Counted from the stretch's first letter, positions 31,881 through 58,707 are shown. The stretch: DNA of 64,000 nucleotides from a virus (IMGVR_UViG_3300032030_000062:1-64000), one strand, 5' to 3'. Notes: generated by a model from the letters alone, not told the origin. A program made the numbers and translations.

Positions 31881-32810
31881 ATGGCTTTAACAGAAGGTGG
31901 AAATGGAGGTAATGAAATGGTTATGCCTGTAGCACCTATGTATGGTGGCGGTGGTTCCGGCTTTGGTGGCTGGGGCGGCGATAACGGTTGGTGGATTATT
32001 CTTCTGTTCCTGTTTGCTCTTGGCGGTTGGGGCAACGGCTTCGGTGGAGGCTATGGTGGAGGCGGTGCAATGCCTTACATCATGAGCAATACTACCAATG
32101 CAGATGTTCAGCGTGGTTTTGACCAGCAGGCAGTAATGAGTGGGATTTCCGGCATACAGTCTGGTATTTCTGGATTATCTACTCAACTGTGTGGATGCTG
32201 TGCAGATGTGCAACAGTCCTTATGCAATGGTTTCGCAGGAGTTAATGCAACAGTTAATAGTGGATTCGCTAATGCTGAAACAGCGGCAAATGCCCGTCAG
32301 ATGGCGAACATGAATCAGGCATTCAATGCCCAGACAGCTATGATGCAAGGATTCAACAACATCGGTTCTCAGTTTGCCGATTGTTGCTGTGAGAACAGAC
32401 TTGGACTTGCCGATCTGAAATACACGGTGGCGACAGAGAATTGTGCTGATAGAACTGCGGCGGCTCAGAATACAAGGGACATTATTGATTCTCAGACTCG
32501 TGGCACTCAGGCTATTCTTGATAAACTTTGCCAGCTTGAACTTGACGGAGTTAAGGCTCAGGTTGAAGCTAAGAATGATAGAATTTCTGAACTTCAGACC
32601 CAGCTTAACATGGCTAATCTTGCGGCTTCTCAGACCGCTCAGAATGCCCTTATTCAGAATGGTTTTGCTAACGAGGTTGATGCTCTGTATAACAGACTTA
32701 ACTCCTGTCCTGTCCCGACTACTCCGGTTTATGGTCGTACTCCTATTTTTACTTGTTCGCAGAATCCGTACGATGGGTGCAGATGCGGCGGTAACGGATT
32801 CGCAAATTGA
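31881..32810 (+). CDS. Gly-rich membrane-anchored protein with CC/CCC motifs and coiled coil
   Basis: AAGGAGG RBS; GWWIILLFLFALGGWG; LCGCC, DCCCENR. Confidence 0.8.
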   Translation: MALTEGGNGGNEMVMPVAPMYGGGGSGFGGWGGDNGWWIILLFLFALGGWGNGFGGGYGGGGAMPYIMSNTTNADVQRGFDQQAVMSGISGIQSGISGLSTQLCGCCADVQQSLCNGFAGVNATVNSGFANAETAANARQMANMNQAFNAQTAMMQGFNNIGSQFADCCCENRLGLADLKYTVATENCADRTAAAQNTRDIIDSQTRGTQAILDKLCQLELDGVKAQVEAKNDRISELQTQLNMANLAASQTAQNALIQNGFANEVDALYNRLNSCPVPTTPVYGRTPIFTCSQNPYDGCRCGGNGFAN

Positions 32811-32822
32811 TGAGGTGATACT

Positions 32823-33278
32823 ATGGCAAAGTATATTACATCAACGGATCAAAACGTTGCTCTGAACGGTACCTTTCCGTTTAACATTGTATCTATCCCG
32901 TGTAATAAAGGATGTGTAATCCCTATCACAACTGGGGTTCTTACTTTACAAGGTAGCAGAACTAATAGATTTGCGAGATATGAGGTTGAACTTCAGGCAA
33001 ATATTGCGATTCCAGAAGGTGGAACTGTTACGCCAATAGCAGTCGCAATCACACTTAATGGTGTAGCTATTCCTGATAGTGTAGCAATTATTACTCCCGC
33101 GGCGGCAGAAGATGTGTGGCATATTAGCACATCCGCGACAATCACAGTACCGTGTGATTGTTGTGTATCAGTTTCGGCCGCTTACGTGGATGCCACAGAA
33201 GATGATGCAACAGTGACTCCTACTCCGTCAATTTTTGTACGGAGAAACGCCTCGCTGACCGTATCCAGAACAGCATAA
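32823..33278 (+). CDS. beta-rich protein (BclA-CTD/TNF-like fold suspected)
   Basis: GAGGTG RBS; alternating beta pattern; VPCDCC. Confidence 0.6.
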   Translation: MAKYITSTDQNVALNGTFPFNIVSIPCNKGCVIPITTGVLTLQGSRTNRFARYEVELQANIAIPEGGTVTPIAVAITLNGVAIPDSVAIITPAAAEDVWHISTSATITVPCDCCVSVSAAYVDATEDDATVTPTPSIFVRRNASLTVSRTA

Positions 33279-33295
33279 GAAAGGAGGTATGTCAA

Positions 33296-34030
33296 ATGGA
33301 TAAGAATTATGAAGCTATAAAAGAAATTCTGGAAGATCAGATTAAAAAGATCGTCAAAAAAGGAGACATATCTCCTCAGGAACTTGATAATCTCTATAAA
33401 GCCTCTGCTATTTGTTTAGACTTTGAAACAAAAGATGCCATGAAGAAAGCTGAGGAACAGCAAAAACAAGGCGGTCAGTCTATGAACAGCTATAATATGG
33501 GTAACCGTAGAGGTTCTTATAATATGGGCGGTTCTAATGAAGGTGGAAATTCTACTCATTATCCGTGGTTTATGTACGCAGGTGATGGAACATATGATTT
33601 CGGAAATAGTGGTAACTCTTATGGACCTATCTGGAATCAGGATATGGAAAATAAGTCTCTGCATGAATTACACTCTCAGGACGGCAATAGCAATAGAAGA
33701 GGCGTAAAAGGAACCGGACGTGGCAATTCTTATGATCGTTCCTATGAAGGTGCGTATGACGGTGCTTATGATGGAGCATACGACGGTAGTTATGATGGAA
33801 GTTATAACGGTAGCTATGACGGGTCTATGGATGCTTCTGGTGATAATTCCTATCGCCGGGGCAGAGATCAAAGAACTGGCAGATATGTAAGTCGTGATAA
33901 TAGAGGATATAGTCGTGCGATGGATAAACAGCGCATGATCGGTAAACTCGAAGATATGATGGACGATGCTCCGTCAGAAAAAGAACGGCGTACATTACAG
34001 CAATGCGTTGACAAACTGGAAAGACAGTAA
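33296..34030 (+). CDS. Gly/Ser/Tyr/Asn-rich low-complexity protein with Y(D/E/N)G(A/S) repeats
   Basis: AAGGAGG RBS; 8 tetrapeptide units encoded at 33731-33826. Confidence 0.8.
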   Translation: MDKNYEAIKEILEDQIKKIVKKGDISPQELDNLYKASAICLDFETKDAMKKAEEQQKQGGQSMNSYNMGNRRGSYNMGGSNEGGNSTHYPWFMYAGDGTYDFGNSGNSYGPIWNQDMENKSLHELHSQDGNSNRRGVKGTGRGNSYDRSYEGAYDGAYDGAYDGSYDGSYNGSYDGSMDASGDNSYRRGRDQRTGRYVSRDNRGYSRAMDKQRMIGKLEDMMDDAPSEKERRTLQQCVDKLERQ

Positions 34031-43891: not shown

Positions 43892-43920
43892 TTGACATAT
43901 ATAGTATTATGTACTATAAT
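43892..43920 (+). promoter_or_regulatory. sigma-A-type promoter
   Basis: TTGACA-17-TATAAT. Confidence 0.85.
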
Positions 43921-44854: not shown

Positions 44855-47158
44855 GTGATGGCGCTATTTAATGTTCCAAAACGTCCGGGAAGAGAACAAG
44901 ATACAGCTATTGCAACAAAATCAAAGTCCAAAGTAAAAGCACCCACTACTGTAAAAGGTAGTGGTCTGCTTGGACAGATAAATCAGATTAAAGCAATGGT
45001 TGAAAAATATCTTGGCAAATATAAAGATGATTATATAGTTATACAAGATGTTGTATCATTAGATGAATATTTTGCCAAATGTATACAGAATCGAGTTATA
45101 TCCGTAGATACAGAAACGACTGGTCTTGATCCTATATTAGATAAGATTGTTGGTTTATGTATTTATACTCCAGGTCAGCCAGCCGCATACGTTCCAATAA
45201 ATCATGTGTCGTATGTGACTGGTGTGAGAGTTGATAATCAGTTGACAGAGCAGGAAGTTGCGACTAGTTTAAAAATTCTATTAGATTTTCATCCAGATAT
45301 TATTATGTTTAACGCCAAATTTGATATGAGAGTTATTCGTAATCAATTAGGTGTTAAAGATATATATTGTACATGGGATGCTTATTTAGCTGGTAGACTC
45401 CTTAATGAAAATGAAGAATCAAAAGGACTTAAAGCATTACATCAGAAATATGTACTTGATGGAAAAGAAGATGAATTTAAGTTTGATGCTTTATTTAAGG
45501 GCATAACAGCAGATAAAATTCCCATCAATACATTCTATCTTTATGCGGCTCATGATGCTATTATCACATATGAACTGTATCAATATCAGAAGCAGTATTT
45601 GTATTATGATCCTACAGTAACGCCAGAAGCAAGAAATGGAATGAACGGTGTGTCGTGGGTATTCTTCAATATAGAAATGCCTTGCATTAAAGTAGTTTGC
45701 GATATGGAAGATAACGGAGTAAAGTTTGATTTTGATTATCAGCAAAAGTTATCGGAGAAGTATAACAGACTATTAGAAGAAAAAACACAGGAGTTTTATA
45801 ACGTATGTTCTGCTTATGATGAGGAGATAGAGGAGTATAAAAAGAAAAATCCGAATCATAAACTTGATACTCCTATCAATATCGGAAGTCCTACACAGAT
45901 TGCAATTCTTCTTTATGATATTATGCAGATTGAACCACCTGATCCTAAGAGTCCGAGAGGAACAGGAGAAGCAATATTACAGAAGATCGATAGTCCAATA
46001 GCAAAAGCAATATTAGATTATCGTGAAATGTCCAAACTTGTTTCTACTTATATTGATAAACTTCCTAATTGTGTAAATCCGAAAGATGGAAGAATACATT
46101 GTAGTTTTAATCAGTATGGAGCAGATACGGGAAGATTCAGTAGTTCAGACCCCAATCTTCAAAATATTCCATCACATAATAAAGACATTAGAAAAATGTT
46201 TGTAGCATCTGATGGATATGTTTTAATGTCCTCTGATTACAGTCAGCAGGAACCGAAGGTCATGACACAGATGTGCGGTGATCCTAAGATGATTAAAGCA
46301 TATCAAGAAGGGAAAGATTTATATGCAGAAATTGCCGCTTTGTCTTTTAACACAACCTATGAGAATTGCCTCGAATTTAGACCGGACGGTACAACTAACC
46401 CTGACGGTAAATCTCGCAGAAGTCAAGCAAAATCAATTTTGCTCGGAGTGCTTTATGGAAGAGGTGTGCCAAGCATTGCAGAACAGCTTGGAACCACTAC
46501 CAAAAAAGCACAAGCAATAAAAGATTCCGTATTTAAAGGATTTCCGGCAATACCGAAGTTTGAAGAAGATAGTTTGGATATGGCTTATGAAAAAGGATAT
46601 GTTACTACCCTGTGGGGTAGAAAAAGAAGATTGCCCGATTTACAGTTGCCCGAGTATGAATTTAAATGGAAAGACGGAACAAGACCTGATGCAGATTTGC
46701 TTGACTTTAGCGAGGAAGAATCTGAGAGTGAAGTTTACGTGCCAGATGAATTACAGCAGAAGTATATCAGAAGATTAAGACAAGCATATTTTGGACAGAA
46801 AAGAAAAATCTTTGAAGAAGCTAACAAAGAAGGAATTTGGGTTATTGATAATACAATGAAGATTGCAGATGCCCAAAGACAATGTGTAAATGCAAGAATC
46901 CAAGGATCAGCCGCAGATATGAGTAAGTTAGCAATGATTTTAGTCGGAAATGATGAAAGATTAAAAGAATTAGGATTTAGACTTCTTATACCTGTACACG
47001 ATGAATTGATAGCAGAATGTCCAGAAGAGAATGTAAAAGAATGTTCTGAAAGATTTGCTATGCTTATGGCAAAAGCGGCAGAGAGTAGATTAACAATTCC
47101 CATTAAATGTGATGTAGAAGTCACAAGAGAATGGTATGGAGAATCTATTTATGAATAA
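44855..47158 (+). CDS. polA: family A DNA polymerase (3'-5' exonuclease plus polymerase, no 5' nuclease)
   Basis: DTETTG (ExoI), YAAHDA (ExoIII), DYSQQE (motif A), RSQAKSILLGVLYG (B), PVHDE (C). Confidence 0.96.
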   Translation: MMALFNVPKRPGREQDTAIATKSKSKVKAPTTVKGSGLLGQINQIKAMVEKYLGKYKDDYIVIQDVVSLDEYFAKCIQNRVISVDTETTGLDPILDKIVGLCIYTPGQPAAYVPINHVSYVTGVRVDNQLTEQEVATSLKILLDFHPDIIMFNAKFDMRVIRNQLGVKDIYCTWDAYLAGRLLNENEESKGLKALHQKYVLDGKEDEFKFDALFKGITADKIPINTFYLYAAHDAIITYELYQYQKQYLYYDPTVTPEARNGMNGVSWVFFNIEMPCIKVVCDMEDNGVKFDFDYQQKLSEKYNRLLEEKTQEFYNVCSAYDEEIEEYKKKNPNHKLDTPINIGSPTQIAILLYDIMQIEPPDPKSPRGTGEAILQKIDSPIAKAILDYREMSKLVSTYIDKLPNCVNPKDGRIHCSFNQYGADTGRFSSSDPNLQNIPSHNKDIRKMFVASDGYVLMSSDYSQQEPKVMTQMCGDPKMIKAYQEGKDLYAEIAALSFNTTYENCLEFRPDGTTNPDGKSRRSQAKSILLGVLYGRGVPSIAEQLGTTTKKAQAIKDSVFKGFPAIPKFEEDSLDMAYEKGYVTTLWGRKRRLPDLQLPEYEFKWKDGTRPDADLLDFSEEESESEVYVPDELQQKYIRRLRQAYFGQKRKIFEEANKEGIWVIDNTMKIADAQRQCVNARIQGSAADMSKLAMILVGNDERLKELGFRLLIPVHDELIAECPEENVKECSERFAMLMAKAAESRLTIPIKCDVEVTREWYGESIYE

Positions 47159-48347
47159 GCGAATAGCTGTAATAAATCCAGTAGGATTTGAGCCTGGAGG
47201 AGCGACTACCTTGTGTGTACAATATGCAAAGTTGGGCATTGATTGTTGGTTGAAAGATTCGACAATAGATAGAACTTTGAATGCCAATATGTATATTTAC
47301 ACGAATACGGACGAACTGATAAGGGCGATAGATGAAAATGAATATGAACGACTACTGTTTTTAAATATGTGGTATGGGAAGATGCCACCAGAAACAGCAT
47401 TGAATGAGGTTGTGAAAATACGAAATGCACATCCATCATTAGAGATATGTCACATAAATTGTAATAGAACACCTCATCATCTTTATAATTTACAAGAGGC
47501 ATGTAAAAAATGTAATTTTATGTTTGATCATATATTTTCAATATGTAAAGATATTGATAAGTTTGATTTATGTAATTGGACATATATGAATATAAATGCT
47601 TTTGTGCCATTTGCTTATGAACCGGTATCATTAAAAGATCGTAAAAACATAATATTTACAGCAGGTAGAATAGAAGGATTTAAGGGTATAATTAAATTTT
47701 TAAGTTCGATAGACGATGATTTTATAAAATCATCCGATGATTTTACATACTTACATGAAGGTGCAAAGTATAATTGGAATAAGAATGGAACAGGTGTTAG
47801 TTGTCCACCACAATTATTGACTATATTTAATACTACAGTATCTCCTAAAGTTTTGAAATCACAATTTGCATTAAGAAGTTATAGTGAAGAACCAATTAGA
47901 AATAAATTTAATATATATCCATTTTATGATGTACGTGATATACGAGATAGATGGCGTTATTATTATGCAGGAATTTGTTGTATAGGTGGTACACGATATG
48001 GATATAATAAAGTTAGTTCATTATTTGGTAATAAGTTTGTAATGAAAGATGCCAGAGAACGGACACAATTAGAGAAACAAGTAACAAGATGGAACGATGC
48101 ATTAGAATATGCTGATATAGAGAAGATAATGTTCGGCATTCCAATGTTTATTTCAAGACAATATTCAGAAATTGTTGAATTTAATGATGAAAGATTGATT
48201 TATAATTCTTTTTCGGAAATTACAGATAAAGCAAGACTTTTAAGGGATTGCTATGATGAAGTTAGGCAAAATCAATATGAATGGTTTGTTACTAAAAATA
48301 AGGAAACAAATAATAATATAATAAAAGAATTTACAAAGGAATTATAA
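47151..48347 (+). CDS. GT-B glycosyltransferase resembling T4 DNA alpha-glucosyltransferase
   Basis: ~400 aa; RIAVINPVGFEPGGAT, AGRIEGFKG and ALEYADIE align by eye with recalled T4 Agt motifs (RICIFMARGLEGCGVT, GRTTTWKG, SLEYTHLE). Confidence 0.65.
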   Translation: MNKRIAVINPVGFEPGGATTLCVQYAKLGIDCWLKDSTIDRTLNANMYIYTNTDELIRAIDENEYERLLFLNMWYGKMPPETALNEVVKIRNAHPSLEICHINCNRTPHHLYNLQEACKKCNFMFDHIFSICKDIDKFDLCNWTYMNINAFVPFAYEPVSLKDRKNIIFTAGRIEGFKGIIKFLSSIDDDFIKSSDDFTYLHEGAKYNWNKNGTGVSCPPQLLTIFNTTVSPKVLKSQFALRSYSEEPIRNKFNIYPFYDVRDIRDRWRYYYAGICCIGGTRYGYNKVSSLFGNKFVMKDARERTQLEKQVTRWNDALEYADIEKIMFGIPMFISRQYSEIVEFNDERLIYNSFSEITDKARLLRDCYDEVRQNQYEWFVTKNKETNNNIIKEFTKEL

Positions 48348-48351
48348 TATT

Positions 48352-49212
48352 ATGCGAAAAGATTTTGCCCTTTTTATATGTACTCATGGTAGACCTGATA
48401 AACAATTAACATTAAAAACTTTTAAATATCATGGATATACCGGAAAATATTTTTTAATTGTTGATGATACAGATGAAACTATTCAAAAGTATATAGATAA
48501 TTATGGTGCTGAAAATATAATAGTTTTTAATAAAAATTATTATATCAATTCCGATAAATTTGATAACGGTGATAACAAGTTACATGATAAGTGTATTTTA
48601 TACGCAAAGAGAGCCGCGGAAGATATAGCAAAAGAATATGGATATAAATTTTTTATAATTGCAGATGATGATATAACTAATTTAAGTGTGCGTTATCCAA
48701 AAGATGGTAAGGCAAAAAGAGTTAGCATAACTAATTTAGATGACATTCTGAATACTCATATAGAATTTATAGAGGAGACAAATATAGTTTGTTTAGGATT
48801 TGGTAATGTTACGCATTATTTTTCTGGTGTTAGCGCATTTAACTGGAATAACTCAAAACATAGATTATTACCTTATCAGTTATTGTTGAGAAATGGTAAA
48901 TTTAGTGTTAATTGGTTATCATGGTTTGCCGAAGATGATGTTACAGAGTATCAAAGCTGTATGCTCGGTAATTTATGGTTAGTTTCGTTATTCGTGATGT
49001 ACGATATTGAACCTGTTGGCGATATAAACGTAACTGGTGGTATGGTTGATGTATATAAACAAAATGATCTATTTAGTTTGCAGTTTAATGCGGTTAAATA
49101 TTGTCCTCAAAGAATAACATTACGCAATCATAGAAAAAACGGTAAGATTGTTATGGACAGACATAATGAGATTTGTTTTCCAAAAATATTAAGTTGGAGG
49201 TATCAGAAGTGA
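48352..49212 (+). CDS. GT-A glycosyltransferase (TAGT/GREB1-like, T2/T6 second-sugar transferase-like), paralog 1
   Basis: FALFICTHGR N-terminus, ADDD (DxD), EDD, TGGM. Confidence 0.7.
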   Translation: MRKDFALFICTHGRPDKQLTLKTFKYHGYTGKYFLIVDDTDETIQKYIDNYGAENIIVFNKNYYINSDKFDNGDNKLHDKCILYAKRAAEDIAKEYGYKFFIIADDDITNLSVRYPKDGKAKRVSITNLDDILNTHIEFIEETNIVCLGFGNVTHYFSGVSAFNWNNSKHRLLPYQLLLRNGKFSVNWLSWFAEDDVTEYQSCMLGNLWLVSLFVMYDIEPVGDINVTGGMVDVYKQNDLFSLQFNAVKYCPQRITLRNHRKNGKIVMDRHNEICFPKILSWRYQK

Positions 49213-49610
49213 GTGCCTTATTTACTGTTGCATCAAAGTTAGTGGATGAAAATAATAAGTATACTAAAAAAGTTCAAATTCCACAATACGTTCCAGATAA
49301 AGTTTGCCCAAAACTGGATGAATTGAGTAATATTCAAAAATATGGTAAACTAATCGCACATATAAATAATTCCAATGTGTCAGATGATGAGAAAAAGTTT
49401 TTGCGATTCGCGGCAAGTAGACATATAATATTTAATTATGCAAAGATAGCGGATTATTATGCTCATGCAAGCAAAGAAATGCAGGAGTTAATGGAAGAAT
49501 CCGCACTTGTTATAATTGATATTGATGATGCAATAGCAAATGGTTATGTTAAACTAAGCAAGGAAATTATGGACATAGTAGAAACTTCTGGTAGAAATAC
49601 AAAAACTTGA
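49209..49610 (+). CDS. conserved partner protein of the GT-A genes
   Basis: KYTKKVQIPQY and FNYAKIADYYAHA...EESALVIID; GTG start overlapping the upstream stop. Confidence 0.65.
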   Translation: MSALFTVASKLVDENNKYTKKVQIPQYVPDKVCPKLDELSNIQKYGKLIAHINNSNVSDDEKKFLRFAASRHIIFNYAKIADYYAHASKEMQELMEESALVIIDIDDAIANGYVKLSKEIMDIVETSGRNTKT

Positions 49611-49620
49611 GGACATATAC

Positions 49621-50478
49621 ATGCGAAACGATTTTGCCGTTTTTATATTAAGTCATGGTAGGGGAAATAATGTAAAAACAGTAATTACATTATTGAAGTA
49701 TGGATATACTGGCAACTGGTATATTATTATTGATGATGAAGATAATCAATCGGATAAATATTATAGAAACTACGGAAAAGATCATGTAATTATGTTCAGT
49801 AAACAAGAGATGGACAATAAGTTTGACATAATGGATAATTTTACTGGACGATCAGTTCCAACATTTGCCAGAAATGCTGTATATGAAATAGCCAATCGAT
49901 TGAATTTAAAATATTTTCTGGAAGCTGATGATGATTTAACATGTTTTAGGCATAGATATTTAGATAGCAAGGGAAAGTTATGTACTAAATATATAACAGA
50001 TATGGATTCTGTTATAGAAAGATATTTAGAGTACATGGATAATACAAATATAACGGTTCTTGCATTCGCACAAACTGGAGATTTGATCGGTGGAAAAGAA
50101 TCTAAAATGTATTCAGATGTATATAGACGAAAAGCAATGCAAGGATTTATTGTGAGAGTTTCAGATCCTATAGAATATGTAGGAAGATTTAACGATGATG
50201 TTAATGCCTACGTAGATCATGGAAAGCGTGGAAAATTATTTTTAACTTTTCGTGATATTGTTATGGACACTGCCGAAACACAAGTACAGAGTGGAGGAAT
50301 TTCACAAATGTATTTAACATATGGCACTTATGTTAAATCATTTTATTCTGTTATGTTATGTCCAAGTTCTGTTTTTATTGATATGATGGGAATGAATCAT
50401 AGACGCATTCATCATATGATAAATTGGGAAACTTGTGTACCAAAAATTATAAGTAGTGATTTCAGAAAGGAGAATTAA
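49621..50478 (+). CDS. GT-A glycosyltransferase, paralog 2
   Basis: FAVFILSHGR, EADDD, GRFNDDV, QSGGI; visibly homologous to 48352-49212. Confidence 0.72.
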   Translation: MRNDFAVFILSHGRGNNVKTVITLLKYGYTGNWYIIIDDEDNQSDKYYRNYGKDHVIMFSKQEMDNKFDIMDNFTGRSVPTFARNAVYEIANRLNLKYFLEADDDLTCFRHRYLDSKGKLCTKYITDMDSVIERYLEYMDNTNITVLAFAQTGDLIGGKESKMYSDVYRRKAMQGFIVRVSDPIEYVGRFNDDVNAYVDHGKRGKLFLTFRDIVMDTAETQVQSGGISQMYLTYGTYVKSFYSVMLCPSSVFIDMMGMNHRRIHHMINWETCVPKIISSDFRKEN

Positions 50479-50653
50479 CATGATTATTCCAGTAGAATTG
50501 AATATTACAGAACAGGATTTAGGTAAGTTGAAAAAGAAAATTTTGTATGATAACAAGTTCGGTGATATTAAATTTGTTTTAGATGGTGCTGTTATATGTG
50601 AATCTCCTGTTGTGCTTGAAAAGTTGTTAGTTCATTTGGAGGAAATAAAATGA
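50456..50653 (+). CDS. small hypothetical protein
   Basis: AAGGAG RBS before the ATG at ~50480. Confidence 0.5.
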   Translation: MISERRINMIIPVELNITEQDLGKLKKKILYDNKFGDIKFVLDGAVICESPVVLEKLLVHLEEIK

Positions 50654-51378
50654 AAATAGGTTATTTTCCTATGGTAGCTGATGTTCTACACGCTGGTCAT
50701 ATATTAGCAATAAAGGAAGCAAGATCAAAATGTGATTATTTAATAGTTGGATTATACTGTAAACCAGAACGTAAACCAAATATTGTTCAAAGTATATTTG
50801 AACGGTATGTTCAATTATCTGCGATTAGTTATGTGGATGAAGTAATACCATATGAAAATTCGGAAGATGCGTGTCGTGTAATATTATCATTAAAATTTGA
50901 TGTATATTTTCTTGGAGCAGATTATAAAAATAAAAGTTTTGAAGGACAAGATTTATTAAAAAATTTGAATAAGGAAATTTGTTATATATCAAGAAATCAT
51001 ACTATGAGCAGTTCCGAATTAAAATCTAATATTGTAGCTACTTCCAAAGAAGCAAAATCTGGTAAGATAATTGCTGTAGACTTTGATGGATGTATATGCA
51101 GTTTAAATTGGCCAAATATAGGTGATCCAAATTGGGAAGTAATCAACGCTCTTAAAAAAGAAAAAGAATGTGGAGCAAAATTGATTTTATGGACTTGTAG
51201 ATCTGGTAACTTATTGCAATCGGCTTTAGATGCGTGTAATGAATGGGGAATACAGTTTGATGCAGTTAATGAAAATTTACCGGAGCGTCTTTTAAAATAT
51301 GGATATTCTGAATCCAGAAAAATAAGTGCCGATGAATACTGGGATGATTTAGCCGTTTTAAAAGGAAATAATAATTAA
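50650..51378 (+). CDS. cytidylyltransferase (TagD/RfaE-like HxGH) fused to a HAD-family phosphatase
   Basis: DVLHAGH, SIFERY, GADY, SSSELK; then IAVDFDGC, LWTCR, YWDD. Confidence 0.85.
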   Translation: MKIGYFPMVADVLHAGHILAIKEARSKCDYLIVGLYCKPERKPNIVQSIFERYVQLSAISYVDEVIPYENSEDACRVILSLKFDVYFLGADYKNKSFEGQDLLKNLNKEICYISRNHTMSSSELKSNIVATSKEAKSGKIIAVDFDGCICSLNWPNIGDPNWEVINALKKEKECGAKLILWTCRSGNLLQSALDACNEWGIQFDAVNENLPERLLKYGYSESRKISADEYWDDLAVLKGNNN

Positions 51379-51384
51379 CATAAA

Positions 51385-51651
51385 ATGGGAGGAATTGTTA
51401 TGCAAGTCATTAAAAGAGTATTTACACAGATTCATACCAGAAAACTTGATCGGTCAGTAGCACATAGAAATATGGAACGGTCACATATACGTCATGTTAA
51501 TAGACATGATTATAGTACCTATAAAACTATGTCAGGAATGACAGTACAGGAATATATTCCGAGTTATTTTGCAAGACATTGGAGAGATTATGTTGATATA
51601 CCTACTGTAGATTTAAGGAGGAGTAAGCATGAAGAACTTGAAATTCGGTAA
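51385..51651 (+). CDS. hypothetical basic protein
   Basis: GGAGG before the ATG at ~51400. Confidence 0.55.
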   Translation: MGGIVMQVIKRVFTQIHTRKLDRSVAHRNMERSHIRHVNRHDYSTYKTMSGMTVQEYIPSYFARHWRDYVDIPTVDLRRSKHEELEIR

Positions 51652-52028
51652 GATTAAGATTTATTTTCGTGATGGAAAAGTTGATGTTATTCCAAAAAAG
51701 TTATGGGATGATTATGAATACAATGGATCTTTATTTATTGTAAAACGCTGTGGCGCATGGGTATATACTTATAATATTGGTGATATTTCTTGTATCATTG
51801 TAAATAATAAGAAAGTAAAATGATAACAAATGTTTATGTTCAGGATTTACCAGGACAGGAGTTAAAATTATGGTGTTCTTGTATTTCTTGTGGAAAATCA
51901 TATGAGCAGGATCATAAAATGATACAACTAACCTTTAAAAGTGATAGCGGAACAGGAACAGTTATCAATCTTTGTGATAAGTGCCGCAAAGAATTATATG
52001 AGATTTTGTAATTTCGGAGGAATAGTAT

Positions 52029-53126
52029 ATGAAACTTACAATTAAAACTGAAAAGCTGAAAGAAATGGTATCTCGTGCAGTAAAGGGAGTAGGTAATAAT
52101 AAACTTATTCCGCTTACAAGTCTTATGTGTATTGAATTAAAGGATAATAAACTTACTCTTATTACCACGGATGCTACAAATTATTTGTATATAACAGAGG
52201 ACAAGGTTATCGCAGATGATTTTTATGCCGTAGTAGATGCTAACATGTTTTCTAAATTGATTTCAAAAATGACCTGTGATAATATTACATTAGAAATAAA
52301 GACAGGTATTCTCAGTGTGAAGGGAAACGGAAATTATAAGATTGAACTTCCGCTGGATGAAAACGGTGAACCTATTAAATATCCTGATCCTTATGAAAAG
52401 TTGTGTGATGTATCGTCAGATGTAGGAACAATCAATAGAACAACTATTCAGGTTATTCTTGAAACAATTAAACCAGCACTCGCAACAACACTTGAAAATC
52501 CTTGTTATACAGGATATTATGTCGGAGATAATATTGTTGCAACAGATACATATAAAATTGCAAGTATGGGAGTTAAATTGTTTGAGTCTGATCCTAAGCT
52601 TGTTAGTGCTGAATTGTTAGATTTACTGGCTGTAATGAATGCAGAAAAGATCAGAGTGGAAACATCTGATAACGATGTAATATTTATTACGCCCGATTGC
52701 ATTGTATGCGGTAAGTTTATGGAAGGCATCGATGATTATGCTATTGATGCAATCACTGATTTAGTAAATACTGAAATTGATAGCTTTTGTTCCGTGCCTA
52801 AGAGCGCATTGTTACAGTTATTGGATAGACTTTCATTGTTTGTCGGTACTTATGATAAAAATGCAGTACATCTTACATTTACAAATGAAGGATTGCAAGT
52901 ATCATCTAAAGCGGCGAACGGTATTGAATTGATAAAGTATGTTGTAAGCGATAACTTTAAGGACTTCACCTGTTCTATTGATATTCAGATGTTGACGCAG
53001 GAAGTAAAGGCAATTCAGAGTGATGTTATCGAAATGTATTATGGCGAAGATAATGCTATTAAGATGACAGATGGTAATATAACAATAATTGTCGCATTAT
53101 TAGAGGATGATGATATGGAAGAATAA
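52029..53126 (+). CDS. dnaN: DNA sliding clamp (beta-clamp-like)
   Basis: 365 aa; LTLITTD and VATDTYKIA motifs; three-domain length. Confidence 0.85.
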   Translation: MKLTIKTEKLKEMVSRAVKGVGNNKLIPLTSLMCIELKDNKLTLITTDATNYLYITEDKVIADDFYAVVDANMFSKLISKMTCDNITLEIKTGILSVKGNGNYKIELPLDENGEPIKYPDPYEKLCDVSSDVGTINRTTIQVILETIKPALATTLENPCYTGYYVGDNIVATDTYKIASMGVKLFESDPKLVSAELLDLLAVMNAEKIRVETSDNDVIFITPDCIVCGKFMEGIDDYAIDAITDLVNTEIDSFCSVPKSALLQLLDRLSLFVGTYDKNAVHLTFTNEGLQVSSKAANGIELIKYVVSDNFKDFTCSIDIQMLTQEVKAIQSDVIEMYYGEDNAIKMTDGNITIIVALLEDDDMEE

Positions 53127-53133
53127 GTAATAG

Positions 53134-53184
53134 ATAAAGCTACTGATGGTAAAGCGTTTTATTTGCTGTCAGTAGCTTTATTTT
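53134..53184 (+). terminator. long-stem terminator
   Basis: ATAAAGCTACTGA/TCAGTAGCTTTAT 13-bp stem followed by Ts. Confidence 0.7.
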
Positions 53185-54236: not shown

Positions 54237-54782
54237 ATGGCTGTTAATAGAGGGAAACGGTTTGAAGATGTTATACGCAAATCTTTTGAGCGTGTCGAAG
54301 GTGTTTCTATTGACCGTCTAAATGATAATACCGCTGGATTTAAGGGGATCGCGGGTATTTGTGATTTCATAGTATATAAAGAGCCGTATGAATATTATAT
54401 AGAATGTAAATCCGTACATGGAAATACATTGAGTATTCATAGTAACGATCCTAAACATAAATATGGAAATATAACAAATACTCAATGGGAAGGACTTTTA
54501 GAGAAATCAAAAATAGAAGGTGTATTTGCAGGAATTATTTGTTGGTGGATAGATAAAGATGTTACCGCATTTATACCGATTTGGTATCTCGATTATTTAA
54601 AACAAAATCAAAAGGTAAAAAGTATCAATGTAAATTCAATGTTAAAAGAAAGCGAAGAATTGGAAAAATATTTTGATTTTAAAAATCCACACTTTATACA
54701 GATAAAAGGAAAAAAGAAAAGAGTTTTCTTTGATTATGACATGGAGGAATTTTTTAATGTCTTTACAGACTGTGTTAGATAA
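54237..54782 (+). CDS. recU: Holliday junction resolvase RecU-like
   Basis: NRGKRFE, CDFIVY, YIECKS. Confidence 0.85.
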   Translation: MAVNRGKRFEDVIRKSFERVEGVSIDRLNDNTAGFKGIAGICDFIVYKEPYEYYIECKSVHGNTLSIHSNDPKHKYGNITNTQWEGLLEKSKIEGVFAGIICWWIDKDVTAFIPIWYLDYLKQNQKVKSINVNSMLKESEELEKYFDFKNPHFIQIKGKKKRVFFDYDMEEFFNVFTDCVR

Positions 54783-55767
54783 TTTACCACAATTTAAAAG
54801 TGATGAGATTATAAAAGCATTTGTTAAAGGATATTCAATTATAAATAATCCAATGTATAAACGTCCTATTTGTTCAATTTCCGGCGGCTCAGATAGTGAT
54901 GTAATGCTTGACATTATTCATAGAATAGACGAACAAAAGAAAGTAACTTATGTTTGGTTTGATACTGGACTTGAGTATAAGGCCACAAAAGAACATCTAA
55001 AATACCTTGAAAATAGATATGACATAAAAATCCATAGAGAGAGAGCAATTAAACCAATTCCTCTTTGTACAAGAAAGTATGGACAGCCGTTTTTGAATAA
55101 GTTTGTATCCGAGCATTTAGGAAGATTGCAGTATCATAATTTCGTTTGGGAAGATGGTACATTTGAAGAATTATGTGAAAAGTATACTAAGTGTGTAGGT
55201 TCAATTAAGTTTTGGTGTAATAAATATCCAGTTAAAGATGGATATACAAAGTCCAAGCTTAATATTAACTATAATAAATGGTTAAAAGAATTTGTTATGA
55301 TGAATCCGCCTACGTTTACAATTTCCAGTAAATGTTGTTACTATGCAAAGAAAAAACCTTCTCATGATTTGATGAAAAAGTTAGGCTGTGATTTAGTTAT
55401 TATAGGTGTTCGCAAAGCAGAAGGTGGTATTCGTGCTTTACAATATAAGAATTGTTATACTCAGGGAGAGAATCAATATCGACCATTATTTTGGTTTAAT
55501 GATAGTGATAAACAGATATATGCAGAAGCATTTGATATAATACATTCAGAGTGTTATGAAAGATGGGGATTCAAAAGAACTGGTTGTGTAGGATGTCCGT
55601 ATGGACTTAATTTGACAGAGGAATTAGCTATTGTACAGAAGTATGAGCCAAATTTATATAAAGCTGCCAATAATGTATTTAAAGAAAGTTATGAGTATAC
55701 AAAACAATATAGACAGTTTGTAAGAGAAATGAAAGATAAAGAAAGAGGAAGGAGAAAGTTATTTTAA
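54757..55767 (+). CDS. PAPS reductase-family (PP-loop) protein
   Basis: SISGGSDS, FDTGLEY, CC...KKKP, GVRKAE, RTGCVGCP. Confidence 0.88.
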   Translation: MSLQTVLDNLPQFKSDEIIKAFVKGYSIINNPMYKRPICSISGGSDSDVMLDIIHRIDEQKKVTYVWFDTGLEYKATKEHLKYLENRYDIKIHRERAIKPIPLCTRKYGQPFLNKFVSEHLGRLQYHNFVWEDGTFEELCEKYTKCVGSIKFWCNKYPVKDGYTKSKLNINYNKWLKEFVMMNPPTFTISSKCCYYAKKKPSHDLMKKLGCDLVIIGVRKAEGGIRALQYKNCYTQGENQYRPLFWFNDSDKQIYAEAFDIIHSECYERWGFKRTGCVGCPYGLNLTEELAIVQKYEPNLYKAANNVFKESYEYTKQYRQFVREMKDKERGRRKLF

Positions 55768-57131: not shown

Positions 57132-57288
57132 ATAAAGATTATATGGATAAAATTATTAGCATATTGGATGATGCAAGCGAACATGAGTCATTGGATGATT
57201 ATTCGATTTTGCTTGATAATGTGATAACAGAAGCGGCAGGTAGAATGGACACATTAGATTGTGCCAGTTGTTGTGTGGGGGACTAAAG

Positions 57289-57654
57289 ATGACAGGTAGT
57301 GAATATCAAAAGGCAGCTATGAGAACATGTGATGTACCAAATATAAATGTTAGACAGGTACTTGGTCTTTCAGAGAATGATTATTGTAAATTTAAGCATG
57401 GTATGTATGGACTTGTATCAGAAATTGGTGAAGCATCTGGTATTCTTCAGAAAATTTCACAGGGACATGACTGGGATGAAAATCATTTTCTGAAAGAACT
57501 TGGCGATTGCTTATGGTTTATAGCAGAATTATGTGATGCATTCGGAGTAACAATGGATATGATTATGCAGATGAATATTGATAAATTAAAAGCACGTTAT
57601 CCTGACGGATTTGATTCAGAACATAGTTTGCACAGGGAAGAAGGAGATATTTAA
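57289..57654 (+). CDS. MazG-like nucleotide pyrophosphohydrolase
   Basis: YQKAAMRT, EIGE, ELGDCLW, NIDKLKARY. Confidence 0.88.
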   Translation: MTGSEYQKAAMRTCDVPNINVRQVLGLSENDYCKFKHGMYGLVSEIGEASGILQKISQGHDWDENHFLKELGDCLWFIAELCDAFGVTMDMIMQMNIDKLKARYPDGFDSEHSLHREEGDI

Positions 57655-58028
57655 TGTCATATTTAGATCAGGCAATATCACAGGCAGCATCACAATTAGA
57701 ATCTAAATTGAAAAATAATATTATTGAAAAATTAGAAGATAATGTTAATCATCCAAAACACTATGAAGGATCGTGTTCCATGGAATGCATTGATATTATG
57801 CAGATGATATTTGGTCCAGAAATTGTATGCTGGTATTGCTTAGTTAATGCGTTTAAATATATGTGGCGATGGAGAAATAAAAATGGCATAGAAGATTTAG
57901 ATAAAGCTGATTGGTATTTAAACAAATATAGATCAATCGAATTTACTCCATTATCACGTATGTCAGTTATATATAAGGATTTAAGTAAGATGATGCAAAG
58001 ATTTAGGGAGGAAATAAAAGATGATTAA
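57654..58028 (+). CDS. DUF3310 (T7 gp1.7/SaV-like) protein
   Basis: VNHPKHY, ECID, NAFKY.WR..KNG.EDL.KA.WYL. Confidence 0.85.
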   Translation: MSYLDQAISQAASQLESKLKNNIIEKLEDNVNHPKHYEGSCSMECIDIMQMIFGPEIVCWYCLVNAFKYMWRWRNKNGIEDLDKADWYLNKYRSIEFTPLSRMSVIYKDLSKMMQRFREEIKDD

Positions 58029-58707
58029 AGTAGAAAAAATTGATGCGTGGGGATTTGAACATGCTATTAGAGGTATGAGAAATCCTATGAATAGTTGGGA
58101 TAAGAGTGATAGTTTGCTTTGTGGAGATATTGCACATCCTGATTTAATTGTAGGACAAAATGATTTAAACCTTATGAGAAGATTATATAAAGCAGGTACA
58201 GAGCATAGAAAGTATCTTAGGCAGATTTTTGTATCTATGGATATAACAGCACCATTATATTGGTGGAAAGAATTTAGCACATATAAATTCGTTGATCCTG
58301 ATTTACCACATATAGATACAAATTCCTGTTCTACTATGCATAAGATTACTGCCAAAGAATTTGAATTGGATGATTTTAGCCATGAACATCTATTTCATGA
58401 CGGTAAACTGTCGTTAATAGATACTATAAATGTTTTAAATCGTTGGAGAAGAATTTATTTAAATGGTGACGTTTTTGCCCCACACAATTCTAATGTAGTT
58501 GAAAAAGTTGAGCCGAAAGATAAGAGAGTTTGGTGGCAGTTAATACAGTTACTTCCATCTTCTTATAATCAGAAAAGAACTGTAACATTTTCTTACGAAA
58601 CCGCAATATCTATGATTAAACAACGAACGGGACATAAATTAGATGAGTGGAGAAATTTTGTTGAAATACTGAATAAATTACCATACGTGAAAGAAATTAT
58701 GGAGTAA
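58021..58707 (+). CDS. divergent ThyX-like (flavin-dependent thymidylate synthase-like) protein
   Basis: HRKYLRQ, APLYWWKEF, SCSTMH, LLPSSY, R.GHKLDEW; lacks a canonical RHR. Confidence 0.65.
   Translation: MIKVEKIDAWGFEHAIRGMRNPMNSWDKSDSLLCGDIAHPDLIVGQNDLNLMRRLYKAGTEHRKYLRQIFVSMDITAPLYWWKEFSTYKFVDPDLPHIDTNSCSTMHKITAKEFELDDFSHEHLFHDGKLSLIDTINVLNRWRRIYLNGDVFAPHNSNVVEKVEPKDKRVWWQLIQLLPSSYNQKRTVTFSYETAISMIKQRTGHKLDEWRNFVEILNKLPYVKEIME

Follow-up and report, generated by a model that had tools for sequence, protein, structure and literature searches.

What purpose would a cluster of glycosyltransferase genes serve inside the replication operon of a phage in which no hydroxymethylase is recognised? 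The locus lies in a 64,000-nucleotide stretch of DNA (the window) from a gut-type phage, whose 73,038-bp genome is classed in IMG/VR as having direct terminal repeats and is rated 100% complete by CheckV. The original prediction was a multi-step DNA hyper-glycosylation system fused to the polA operon. The observation behind it was confirmed, and its interpretation held in part: the gene identities, the operon coupling and the enzyme absence stood up to analysis, but a donor of one class, a single fixed pathway and global modification were not supported.

The island lies between polA (44855-47158), which encodes a family A DNA polymerase with a 3'-5' exonuclease (PF00476 2e-96, PF01612 8e-15, phrog_17 1e-140), and the gene for a DNA polymerase III beta-like sliding clamp (52029-53126; PF00712 1e-7, phrog_947 1.7e-30). 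All five island genes, like every other feature described here, are on the + strand. From polA to the gene for a nucleotidyltransferase-HAD fusion, the junction gaps are -8, +4, -4, +10, -23 and -4 nt, the third being measured to a partner start at GTG 49209; the series includes a 65-aa ORF (50456-50653) that overlaps its neighbours on both sides. Three small ORFs (88, 64 and 63 aa; 51385-52011) separate the island from the clamp gene, and the 88-aa ORF had no match in Pfam or PHROG. Scanning the operon from the SSB gene, we found no terminator-like site on the + strand before the end of the clamp gene; the sole such site in the SSB-to-clamp stretch is a hairpin with a T run at 53134-53181. 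Ahead of the SSB gene, a promoter-like site at 43892-43920 (TTGACA-17-TATAAT) possibly marks the start of the operon, as a consensus match only (12/12). With its tight junctions and no terminator-like interruption, the island is coupled to a replication operon of SSB, polA, island and clamp, as had been predicted.

The first island gene (47151-48347), which overlaps the polA stop, encodes a 398-aa GT-B protein that had been likened to T4 Agt. Structural alignments support this likeness at the level of fold. The protein has the same fold as T4 DNA alpha-glucosyltransferase (AGT) and is closer to it than to other GT-B families; the AGT match lies 5 Z units above generic GT4 enzymes, and the named viral matches at the top are DNA alpha-glucosyltransferases. 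Identity in the structural alignments is 13-15%, and the protein matched no Pfam, PHROG or NCBIfam family and no PDB sequence, so that it is AGT-like by fold while falling outside the sequence profile of T4 AGT. Its nearest structural relative that does not act on DNA is TarM, a wall-teichoic-acid glycosyltransferase.

Two diverged GT-A paralogs had been noted on either side of a conserved partner gene, and both belong to the TAGT family. TAGT-A (48352-49212), upstream of the partner, and TAGT-B (49621-50478) score 86.3 and 99.1 bits against PF20691 (3.5e-24 and 4.3e-28; Pfam cut-off 27.5) and match phrog_842 at 2.7e-29 and 3e-52. They represent two subfamilies, accessory and core, with 24-30% identity between them and 30% between the two island copies. 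TAGT-A is 44-53% identical to equally placed genes in two other loci (L006 and L009), and TAGT-B shares 35-48% identity with its ParB-linked counterparts in jlb1, c5, HHTV-2, NTR1 and an E. coli lambdoid phage. Both copies contain the HGR and DDD motifs; for the third GT-A motif, TAGT-A has AEDD and TAGT-B has NDD, with N[DE]D in the orthologues of TAGT-B. Both copies fit the active-site pattern R...DDD...ED(Y/F) drawn from published motifs (bioRxiv 10.1101/2023.12.21.572611). Phage GT-A enzymes with the same R...DDD...ED motifs have been shown to glycosylate DNA (bioRxiv 10.1101/2023.12.21.572611), and a T6-type TAGT adds a second glucose onto glucosyl-hmC (PMC13390438).

The partner gene itself is real, with its start moved to GTG 49209. 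This is the better start, preceded at 8 nt by GGAGG and overlapping the TAGT-A stop in the sequence GTGA. The resulting protein (49209-49610) has 133 aa, which is also the form recorded in ESM Atlas. It is 46% identical to residues 123-237 of the ParB of Lactobacillus phage jlb1 (E 2e-32), its phrog_620 match covers positions 151-216 of 217, and it is thus homologous to the C-terminal half of a ParB that, in jlb1, precedes a TAGT. The ParB_N domain is absent from the partner and had no match anywhere in the complete genome. For one phage DNA-modifying enzyme, activation on dsDNA by ParB proteins has been proven (PMC13229309).

The island had been read as a multi-step system. Among relatives, the constant part is the partner and TAGT-B only, with the AGT-like gene, TAGT-A and the nucleotidyltransferase variably present; the island is modular rather than one fixed pathway. 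The core pair is widespread. At least 422 IMG/VR contigs contain a partner followed by TAGT-B, 73 adjacent pairs of the two were counted, and TAGT-B is always immediately 3' of the partner or ParB gene. The pair adjoins polA and/or the clamp gene in 53 of 76 non-redundant loci, which carry from one to five TAGT copies each. A version with a full-length ParB adjoins terminase in haloarchaeal phages, in phages of Lactobacillus and Nocardia, and in E. coli. Among 5426 complete E. coli genomes, 1580 (29%) have it, in temperate lambdoid prophages; we know of no report of DNA glycosylation for these prophages. The same pair recurs in phages of E. coli, haloarchaea, actinobacteria and Lactobacillus; a substrate that all of these host groups share fits DNA and not teichoic acid.

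The last island gene (50650-51378) encodes, as predicted, a cytidylyltransferase-HAD fusion, presumed to make an activated donor. It matches CTP_transf_like (PF01467; 2e-9) at 38 bits against a cut-off of 21, and the superfamily models PF01467 and TIGR00125 alone pass. PDB matches are TagD (1coz, 6e-11) and, for the C-terminal domain, the BT0820 HAD phosphatase (2obb, 1.7e-13); the HAD domain contains a DFDG motif and scores 82.5 bits against NF046079, whose equivalog cut-off is 165. The donor had been called an NDP-polyol or NDP-sugar. The N-domain scores about equally for TagD (TIGR01518; 60.2 bits, cut-off 165.4) and RfaE domain II (TIGR02199; 54.9 bits, cut-off 181.5), both far under their cut-offs, so neither class is supported and the donor cannot be called polyol or sugar. 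There is precedent for a phage-made donor: heptosyl-5hmC was produced by a GT-B working with a HAD/APH enzyme and a cytidylyltransferase (bioRxiv 10.1101/2023.12.21.572611).

If the island glycosylates DNA, then the origin of the acceptor has to be considered. To our knowledge, every characterised DNA glycosyltransferase requires a hydroxyl acceptor. In a six-frame search of the complete 73,038-bp genome, Tet_JBP, Thymidylat_synt, C5 DNA_methylase and Thy1 had no match at E<=10; TGT had none in the genome at E<=1 and DpdA none in the complete genome. The predicted lack of a hydroxymethylase thus extends beyond the window, and neither a TET/JBP dioxygenase nor a hydroxymethyl-pyrimidine synthase was found in the same genome as the TAGT genes. 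Tet_JBP had no match in any of 40 whole related phage records, of which 25 are at least 90% complete, and no ThyA-family match in them exceeded the cut-off of Pfam; PF12851 is reported to pick up 83-95% of phage 5mYOX. The claim that no acceptor-making enzyme is visible therefore stands for recognised enzymes, but it overlooked a ThyX-fold protein (phrog_6721; 58021-58707) outside the coordinates of the predicted feature. Directly upstream are genes for a MazG-like NTP pyrophosphatase (57259-57654; PF03819 1.4e-5, phrog_229 1e-32) and a DUF3310 protein (57654-58028; PF11753 4e-16). The ThyX fold is clean; the RHR motif is absent, Thy1 had no match to the protein at E<=10, and its close relatives match Thy1 at sub-threshold values only (7e-4 to 4e-3). 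As the family lies outside Pfam Thy1 and is without RHR, an altered activity is conceivable, and the protein is a possible source of modified pyrimidines, the sole candidate in the genome. It is more likely an ordinary nucleotide-metabolism enzyme. The acceptor base may, as had been suggested, be new.

The composition of the genome bears on how much of the DNA could be modified. Several restriction-site palindromes are strongly avoided (observed/expected: ATTAAT 0/57, GATATC 0/30, GAATTC 2/30, GTTAAC 1/17), whereas no 6-mer in a T4 control stretch falls under 0.2 of expectation. Such avoidance suggests that the DNA is not globally shielded, and it argues against global base replacement or a restriction-proof hypermodification of the T4 type. 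As the avoided sites include A/T-only (ATTAAT) and G/C-only (GGCC, CGCG) sequences, full replacement of T or of C is likewise disfavoured.

We propose, with confidence that is about evenly balanced, that the locus is a modular, post-replicative and probably partial DNA glycosylation island within the replication operon, with a ParB-derived adaptor and TAGT-B as its core. We infer that DNA is the substrate; the sequence of the steps, what the adaptor does and which donor is used are likewise part of the model. The enzymes would be produced alongside the replisome and act on freshly replicated phage DNA. The adaptor would aid contact between TAGT-B and duplex DNA, much as ParB does with some phage thymine dioxygenases, and TAGT-B would add the first sugar. 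The accessory parts in the source phage are TAGT-A, the AGT-fold GT-B and the nucleotidyltransferase-HAD fusion. TAGT-A and/or the AGT-like enzyme may extend the first sugar or decorate further sites, partly with a phage-made donor, as the fusion would convert a phosphorylated precursor into an NDP-activated form. Bases would be decorated in part, or at selected sequences, and not replaced completely.

Counted against this explanation are the lack of a known acceptor-making enzyme, the palindrome avoidance, the pair in E. coli prophages and the structural kinship with TarM and TarP. It is conceivable, though on balance unlikely, that the partner and TAGT-B together make up a DNA glycosyltransferase for which no hydroxymethyl or hydroxy group has to be installed beforehand, and which places sugar directly onto a canonical DNA constituent at selected sequences; the accessory transferases, with the phage-made donor, would then build on that sugar. 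If true, this would be a new DNA-modification chemistry, carried by hundreds of phages and, in about a quarter of E. coli strains, by the Rac-type prophage. A classical pre-replicative route, which we consider improbable, would instead have MazG and DUF3310 supply a dNMP and the ThyX-fold enzyme convert it to a hydroxymethyl- or hydroxy-pyrimidine nucleotide; polA would incorporate it and the AGT-like enzyme and TAGTs would glycosylate it, resembling T-even phages with a ThyX-type in place of a ThyA-type synthase. The clean fold and unusual family of the ThyX-like protein are in keeping with this, as is the position of its gene directly 3' of MazG and DUF3310, and T4 AGT, the nearest fold to the GT-B, acts on 5hmC. 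The ThyX-fold gene is also present in 4 of 4 non-redundant AGT-like loci with enough flank, compared to 7 of 32 without an AGT-like gene, but this co-occurrence may stem from one related lineage. Moreover, of 26 complete records that contain the partner-TAGT-B pair only 7 have the gene, it is missing from all five cultured ParB-TAGT phages, its family exceeds 8000 members and also occurs in ordinary nucleotide-metabolism clusters that contain no glycosyltransferase (as in locus L007), and avoidance of ATTAAT, GGCC and CGCG speaks against full T or C replacement.

The enzymes could also act away from phage DNA. Prophage-borne teichoic-acid glycosyltransferases exist, and a TagD-like enzyme might make CDP-glycerol or a similar donor with which teichoic acid or some other glycopolymer is altered by TarM-like and TarP-like transferases, so as to block superinfection or keep progeny from sticking to debris. 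TarP is the top PDB match of phage GT-A enzymes in the literature (bioRxiv 10.1101/2023.12.21.572611), and the N-domain of the fusion matches TagD structures. Yet the N-domain reaches only 60 of the 165 bits for a TagD equivalog, the AGT fold is clearly above TarM, the partner derives from a DNA-associated protein, 53 of 76 loci have the island within the replication operon, and ParB-paired TAGT-B orthologues are found in phages of E. coli and of a haloarchaeon, hosts that have no teichoic acid; we therefore give an envelope target little credence. We give slightly less still to a role in defence or counter-defence, in which the target would be a protein (of the replisome or a host factor), the hydroxymethyl-base DNA of competing phages or the host nucleotide-sugar pool. 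The lack of an acceptor-making enzyme in cis would suit such a target, the full-length ParB-TAGT pair in temperate prophages could serve the host, and the authors of the glycosyltransferase preprint raised the possibility of prophage enzymes acting on invading DNA. Against it, lytic-type 65-75-kb phages co-transcribe up to five TAGT copies and a donor-making enzyme with polA, which looks like the building of a glycan on the phage's own product, and no protein glycosyltransferase is among the fold matches listed.

The proposed island resembles several known systems. As in T-even glucosylation (T4 AGT, and the T2/T6 beta-glucosyl-HMC-alpha-glucosyltransferase of the TAGT family), an AGT-fold GT-B and a TAGT GT-A occur in one phage. 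It differs in having no dCMP hydroxymethylase or dCTPase pathway, in a GT-B with no sequence-level AGT match, in the placement of its genes in a polA-clamp operon with a ParB-derived partner, and in a genome that avoids restriction sites, which that of T4 does not. Base J synthesis (kinetoplastid JBP1/2 and JGT) employs the same broad GT-A family to place glucose on a DNA base (bioRxiv 10.1101/2023.12.21.572611), but requires thymine oxidation by JBP, an oxygenase not found in the island genome. With wall teichoic acid glycosylation (TagD, TarM, TarP/TarS), each of the three enzyme types has its fold class in common, whereas the sequence families, the genomic context and the range of hosts in which the core pair occurs are at odds with it. 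Also similar are the post-replicative metavirome pathways that combine a C5-methyltransferase, 5mYOX (TET-like) and GT-A/GT-B enzymes, including the heptosyl-5hmC cluster (bioRxiv 10.1101/2023.12.21.572611; PMC8256090). These have the same GT-A motif family, a T4-related GT-B and a phage-made, nucleotide-activated donor from a cytidylyltransferase and a HAD enzyme, with ParB, polymerase and clamp genes recorded as neighbours (bioRxiv 10.1101/2023.12.21.572611). The methyltransferase and 5mYOX are absent from the island genome and the 40 related records, and as the metavirome survey kept only contigs with 5mYOX or ThyS, orphan islands like this one fell outside it. Finally, as with the ParB-dependent phage thymine dioxygenases (PMC13229309), a ParB-family protein is encoded beside a phage DNA-modifying enzyme. 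The published ParBs are needed by their enzyme, have no DNA-binding domain and require the C-terminal domain (PMC13229309). The nucleotide-binding N-domain, which is also required in that system (PMC13229309), has been lost from the partner in the island phage group, and the client here is a glycosyltransferase rather than a dioxygenase.

All the elements listed by the original prediction between polA and the clamp gene, in an island at 47151-51378 (+ strand), are present. The first gene starts at ATG 47151 on the + strand, overlaps the polA stop by 8 nt and encodes a 398-aa protein with no match in Pfam, PHROGs, NCBIfam or PDB sequences, nor, by tblastn, in 50,697 phage records. This protein's roughly 30 relatives share its length, and phage contigs of 71-74 kb encode several of them. 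Using these relatives as the alignment, we obtained an AlphaFold2 model with a mean pLDDT of 92.5 and a pTM of 0.90. When the model was searched with Foldseek, T4 DNA alpha-glucosyltransferase took places one to nine (E 7e-13 to 2.5e-11) and T4 beta-glucosyltransferase and GT4 enzymes came next, bearing out the Agt-like identity that had been proposed.

Two diverged GT-A paralogs had also been anticipated, and both proteins do pass the Pfam TAGT model; they share only 30% identity and belong to two subfamilies. TAGT-A (48352-49212) is 44-53% identical to equally placed genes in two relatives, and TAGT-B (49621-50478) is 35-48% identical to TAGT genes of very different phages. Both keep the HGR and DDD motifs, which a recent study places in the active site of DNA-modifying phage GT-A enzymes (bioRxiv 10.1101/2023.12.21.572611). 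The conserved partner gene described between them is real, and proves to be a homologue of the C-terminal half of ParB, matching residues 123-237 of ParB from Lactobacillus phage jlb1 (46% identity, E 2e-32). In jlb1 ParB, the ParB_N domain lies within the first 85 residues; no ParB_N was found in the partner or in any other frame of the genome. Judged from the sequence, the most likely start of the partner is GTG 49209, which has GGAGG upstream and a GTGA stop-start overlap; the recorded form is 133 aa. In a DNA-level search against cultured phages, the sole match of the island was a 190-bp stretch of the jlb1 ParB gene.

The last island gene encodes a nucleotidyltransferase-HAD fusion. Its N-terminal domain belongs to the cytidylyltransferase superfamily (TagD structures, 6e-11), scoring 60 bits with the TagD equivalog and 55 bits with RfaE-domain-II, both far below the cut-offs. 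The C-terminal domain resembles HAD phosphatases of the BT0820 type and carries the DFDG nucleophile motif. The fusion would make the activated donor proposed for this phage; the donor itself cannot be named.

The island appears to be embedded in a replication operon. A perfect sequence match to a sigma-70-like site lies 5' of the SSB gene, the intergenic gaps from SSB to the clamp gene run from -40 to +17 nt as first called (-23 to +17 nt with GTG 49209), and the only terminator-like hairpin on the + strand of this stretch is 3' of the clamp gene. The G+C content of the island (0.29-0.31) is lower than that of the clamp gene (0.33) and of polA (0.35). The replication region as a whole encodes an SNF2 helicase, a replication initiator, a DnaB-type helicase, primase, SSB, polA and the clamp, together with a Cas4-like exonuclease, a resolvase, RecA and a three-subunit clamp loader. 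The source record is 73,038 bp long, is classed by IMG/VR as having direct terminal repeats and is 100% complete by CheckV. A 51-bp direct repeat is common to both genome ends; positions 1-200 of the window carry a unit of ~23 bases four times (ACAGACAGCACGTCTGCAGATCG or nearly so), and the last 200 bases of the genome a different repeat of ~80 bases. All long genes of the window are on the + strand. The first 30 kb encode terminase, portal, major head protein and tail proteins, and include a 2125-aa ORF where a tape-measure gene would be expected. No sheath match was found among the ten structural ORFs searched, which, with this long ORF, is compatible with the term 'siphovirus'. Positions 32001-34000 of the window have a G+C content of 0.44, compared to about 0.33 elsewhere, and the ORFs there (31881-32810, 32823-33278 and 33296-34030) have no Pfam family and match only PHROGs of unknown function.

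Contigs that encode relatives of the AGT-like protein keep one gene order, namely polA, AGT-like gene, partner and TAGT-B; the nucleotidyltransferase and clamp genes come next in most, and TAGT-A is present in some. Scanning IMG/VR with an alignment of the partner returned at least 422 contigs. From these, 80 loci were fetched, 76 of which were left after removal of near-duplicates, and their ORFs were scored with profiles from alignments built in this analysis. The pair of partner and TAGT-B adjoins polA and/or the clamp gene in 53 of the 76 loci, and none of the partners in these 53 has a ParB_N domain. The islands hold one TAGT copy in 23 of the 53 loci, two in 21, three in six and five in one. 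The AGT-like gene and the nucleotidyltransferase occur together in six, the AGT-like gene only in three, the nucleotidyltransferase only in eight, and neither in 36; strict co-variation of these two genes, suggested by six loci, was dropped on these counts. The largest island seen (L022:9971-16000, on a 115-kb IMG/VR contig) has the partner, five TAGT-B-type genes and the nucleotidyltransferase, 3' of the clamp gene. At some loci polA is split by an inserted gene, for an N6/N4 methyltransferase in one relative (L006:1-2495) and a GIY-YIG endonuclease in another (L008:4782-8008); polA is also in two pieces at several IMG/VR loci.

In the remaining 23 loci the pair lies elsewhere, and 10 of these encode the partner as the tail of a full-length ParB. 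What stays constant is a TAGT-B gene lying within a few bases downstream of the partner gene (73 pairs). In cultured phages, namely Lactobacillus phages jlb1 and c5, haloarchaeal virus HHTV-2, Nocardia phage NTR1 and an E. coli lambdoid phage, full-length ParB and TAGT-B adjoin the terminase genes or lie a few genes upstream. The E. coli pair, whose ParB is annotated ynaK, occurs in 1580 of 5426 complete E. coli genomes, and in 889 of these the match spans 80% or more of the query. Both genes (L012:5217-6933) are neighbours of trkG and of terminase genes in a lambdoid prophage, and the only annotation of TAGT-B there is 'hypothetical protein'.

To our knowledge, all characterised DNA glycosylation begins at a pyrimidine hydroxyl supplied by a ThyA-type synthase or a TET/JBP-type dioxygenase, examples being T-even phages, RB69-type arabinosylation, metavirome 5mYOX pathways and base J. 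The original prediction had recognised no such enzyme in the window, and this now extends to the whole genome, where six-frame searches for Tet_JBP and Thymidylat_synt were empty at E<=10, as were those for C5 DNA_methylase and Thy1. Neither Tet_JBP nor the ThyA family was found in the five cultured ParB-TAGT phages, and no Tet_JBP match, nor any ThyA match above the cut-off, came from 40 whole IMG/VR records that carry the pair, of which 25 have a completeness of at least 90%. According to a 2026 study, the Tet_JBP model detects 83-95% of phage 5-methylpyrimidine dioxygenases and is escaped by thousands of candidate contigs. Since the model misses some members and our Tet_JBP searches were run without a positive control, a very divergent oxygenase could still be encoded in the genome.

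Other candidates were rejected. As TGT/DpdA gave no match in a six-frame search of the whole genome (E<=1), we discounted a 7-deazaguanine route. A PAPS-reductase-like protein in the replication region (54730-55767; PF01507 1.7e-14, phrog_424) was likewise rejected as an island part on that route: among the relatives, its gene is upstream of polA in L029 and missing from the fetched parts of L002 and L006. A radical SAM gene in the remainder of the genome (L001:1089-1757, genome 64089-64757) encodes an NrdG2-type anaerobic ribonucleotide reductase activase (173.6 bits against an equivalog cut-off of 131), which rules it out as a hypermodification enzyme. No ORF of NrdD size or annotation was seen among the genome ORFs, judged by these two features alone, so the activase may serve a host enzyme.

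The only candidate for an acceptor-making enzyme is a 228-aa protein of phrog_6721 (58021-58707), encoded 3' of MazG and DUF3310. Its sequence reads as ThyX-like and its fold is cleanly that of ThyX. Pfam Thy1 does not match and the RHR motif is absent; at the position of the ThyX substrate loop, members of phrog_6721 carry an invariant SCSTMHK stretch. Close relatives give sub-threshold Thy1 matches within the same ORF, and shorter intermediates match both the profile of this family (1e-16 to 9e-18) and Thy1 (1e-5 to 3.5e-4). As a weak lead, the ESM Atlas shows Thy1 on 10% of the members of one neighbouring cluster. Profile-profile comparison with canonical phage ThyX gave a probability of 0.1%, which we attribute to the low diversity of the alignment, and a profile search of PDB sequences was empty. 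With both profile searches empty, homology to ThyX rests on the fold and the weak intermediate matches. Cultured-phage relatives of the protein come from phages of Clostridium, Enterocloster, Clostridioides and Fusobacterium, which, with the NrdG2-type activase, suggests that the host is anaerobic and probably a Firmicute.

Counts of restriction-site palindromes served to test for modification throughout the phage DNA. Against the expectation of a maximal-order Markov model, seven of 34 six-base palindromes tested fall below 0.2 of the expected count. Over the whole genome ATTAAT is absent (57 expected), as is GATATC (30 expected), and GAATTC occurs twice (30 expected), GTTAAC once (17) and CAATTG four times (23.5); CTAG is seen 12 times compared to 115 expected. 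In the first 50 kb of the phage, five six-base palindromes are below 0.2 of expectation and four have z < -4, while 50 kb of T4, of similar G+C content, has none that passes either limit. As the avoided words include A/T-only and G/C-only sites, the DNA has been exposed over evolutionary time to type II restriction at sites containing T, A, C and G, which is inconsistent with a bulky adduct in place of every T or every C. A mark that is partial or sequence-selective would agree with the avoidance, as would recent acquisition of the island or a substrate other than DNA.

Weighing these data, we put at about even the chance that the island is a post-replicative, probably partial DNA glycosylation system. 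Both enzyme families are known only from DNA modification, and the place of the island in the replication operon is fixed. The partner has ParB ancestry, and there is a published precedent in which phage ParB activates a DNA-modifying enzyme on duplex DNA (PMC13229309). A further precedent is a cluster of HAD/APH, cytidylyltransferase and GT-B genes that leads to heptosyl-5hmC (bioRxiv 10.1101/2023.12.21.572611). The core pair also spans hosts as far apart as E. coli, Lactobacillus, Nocardia and Haloarcula, a range that calls for a universal substrate. Counting against DNA are the missing acceptor, the avoided restriction sites and the fold kinship with teichoic-acid glycosyltransferases. We consider it improbable that the island enzymes modify an envelope polymer, give a slightly smaller chance to their acting on other targets, and leave part of the probability unassigned.

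A version of DNA glycosylation that is pre-replicative and fed by ThyX is similarly improbable in our estimate, although the ThyX-fold protein could be the missing synthase. In its favor, the ThyX-fold gene accompanies the AGT-like gene in all four informative loci, compared to seven of 32 other loci; however, these four may be one lineage. Moreover, the gene is present in only seven of 26 complete records with the core pair and in none of the five cultured ParB-TAGT phages. Over 8000 relatives make this a very large family (identity of 58-76% for the 120 listed), and in a 152-kb phage a member adjoins NrdD, NrdG, kinase and dUTPase genes with no glycosyltransferase nearby.

Thus, a set of DNA-type glycosyltransferases, above all the core pair of partner and TAGT-B, recurs in complete phage genomes without a ThyA-type or TET/JBP-type enzyme. 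Either an unrecognised enzyme makes the acceptor, or canonical DNA itself receives the sugar, or the substrate of these 'DNA' transferases is something else, and any of the three answers would alter the annotation of TAGT genes in phage genomes. As the full-length pair, ynaK and its downstream gene, resides in a common E. coli prophage, the acceptor question is directly testable. The pairing would also widen the newly described helper role of ParB for DNA-modifying enzymes, adding a second enzyme class and a ParB form without the nucleotide-binding domain. Our literature searches returned no paper on an orphan ParB-glycosyltransferase system, and a 2023 survey of phage glycosyltransferases analysed pathways by their association with 5mYOX or thymidylate synthase (bioRxiv 10.1101/2023.12.21.572611). 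DNA glycosylation systems of phages are already known; what is new here is a recurrent, modular version that has no recognised acceptor-making enzyme and is centred on an adaptor derived from ParB, minus its nucleotide-binding domain.
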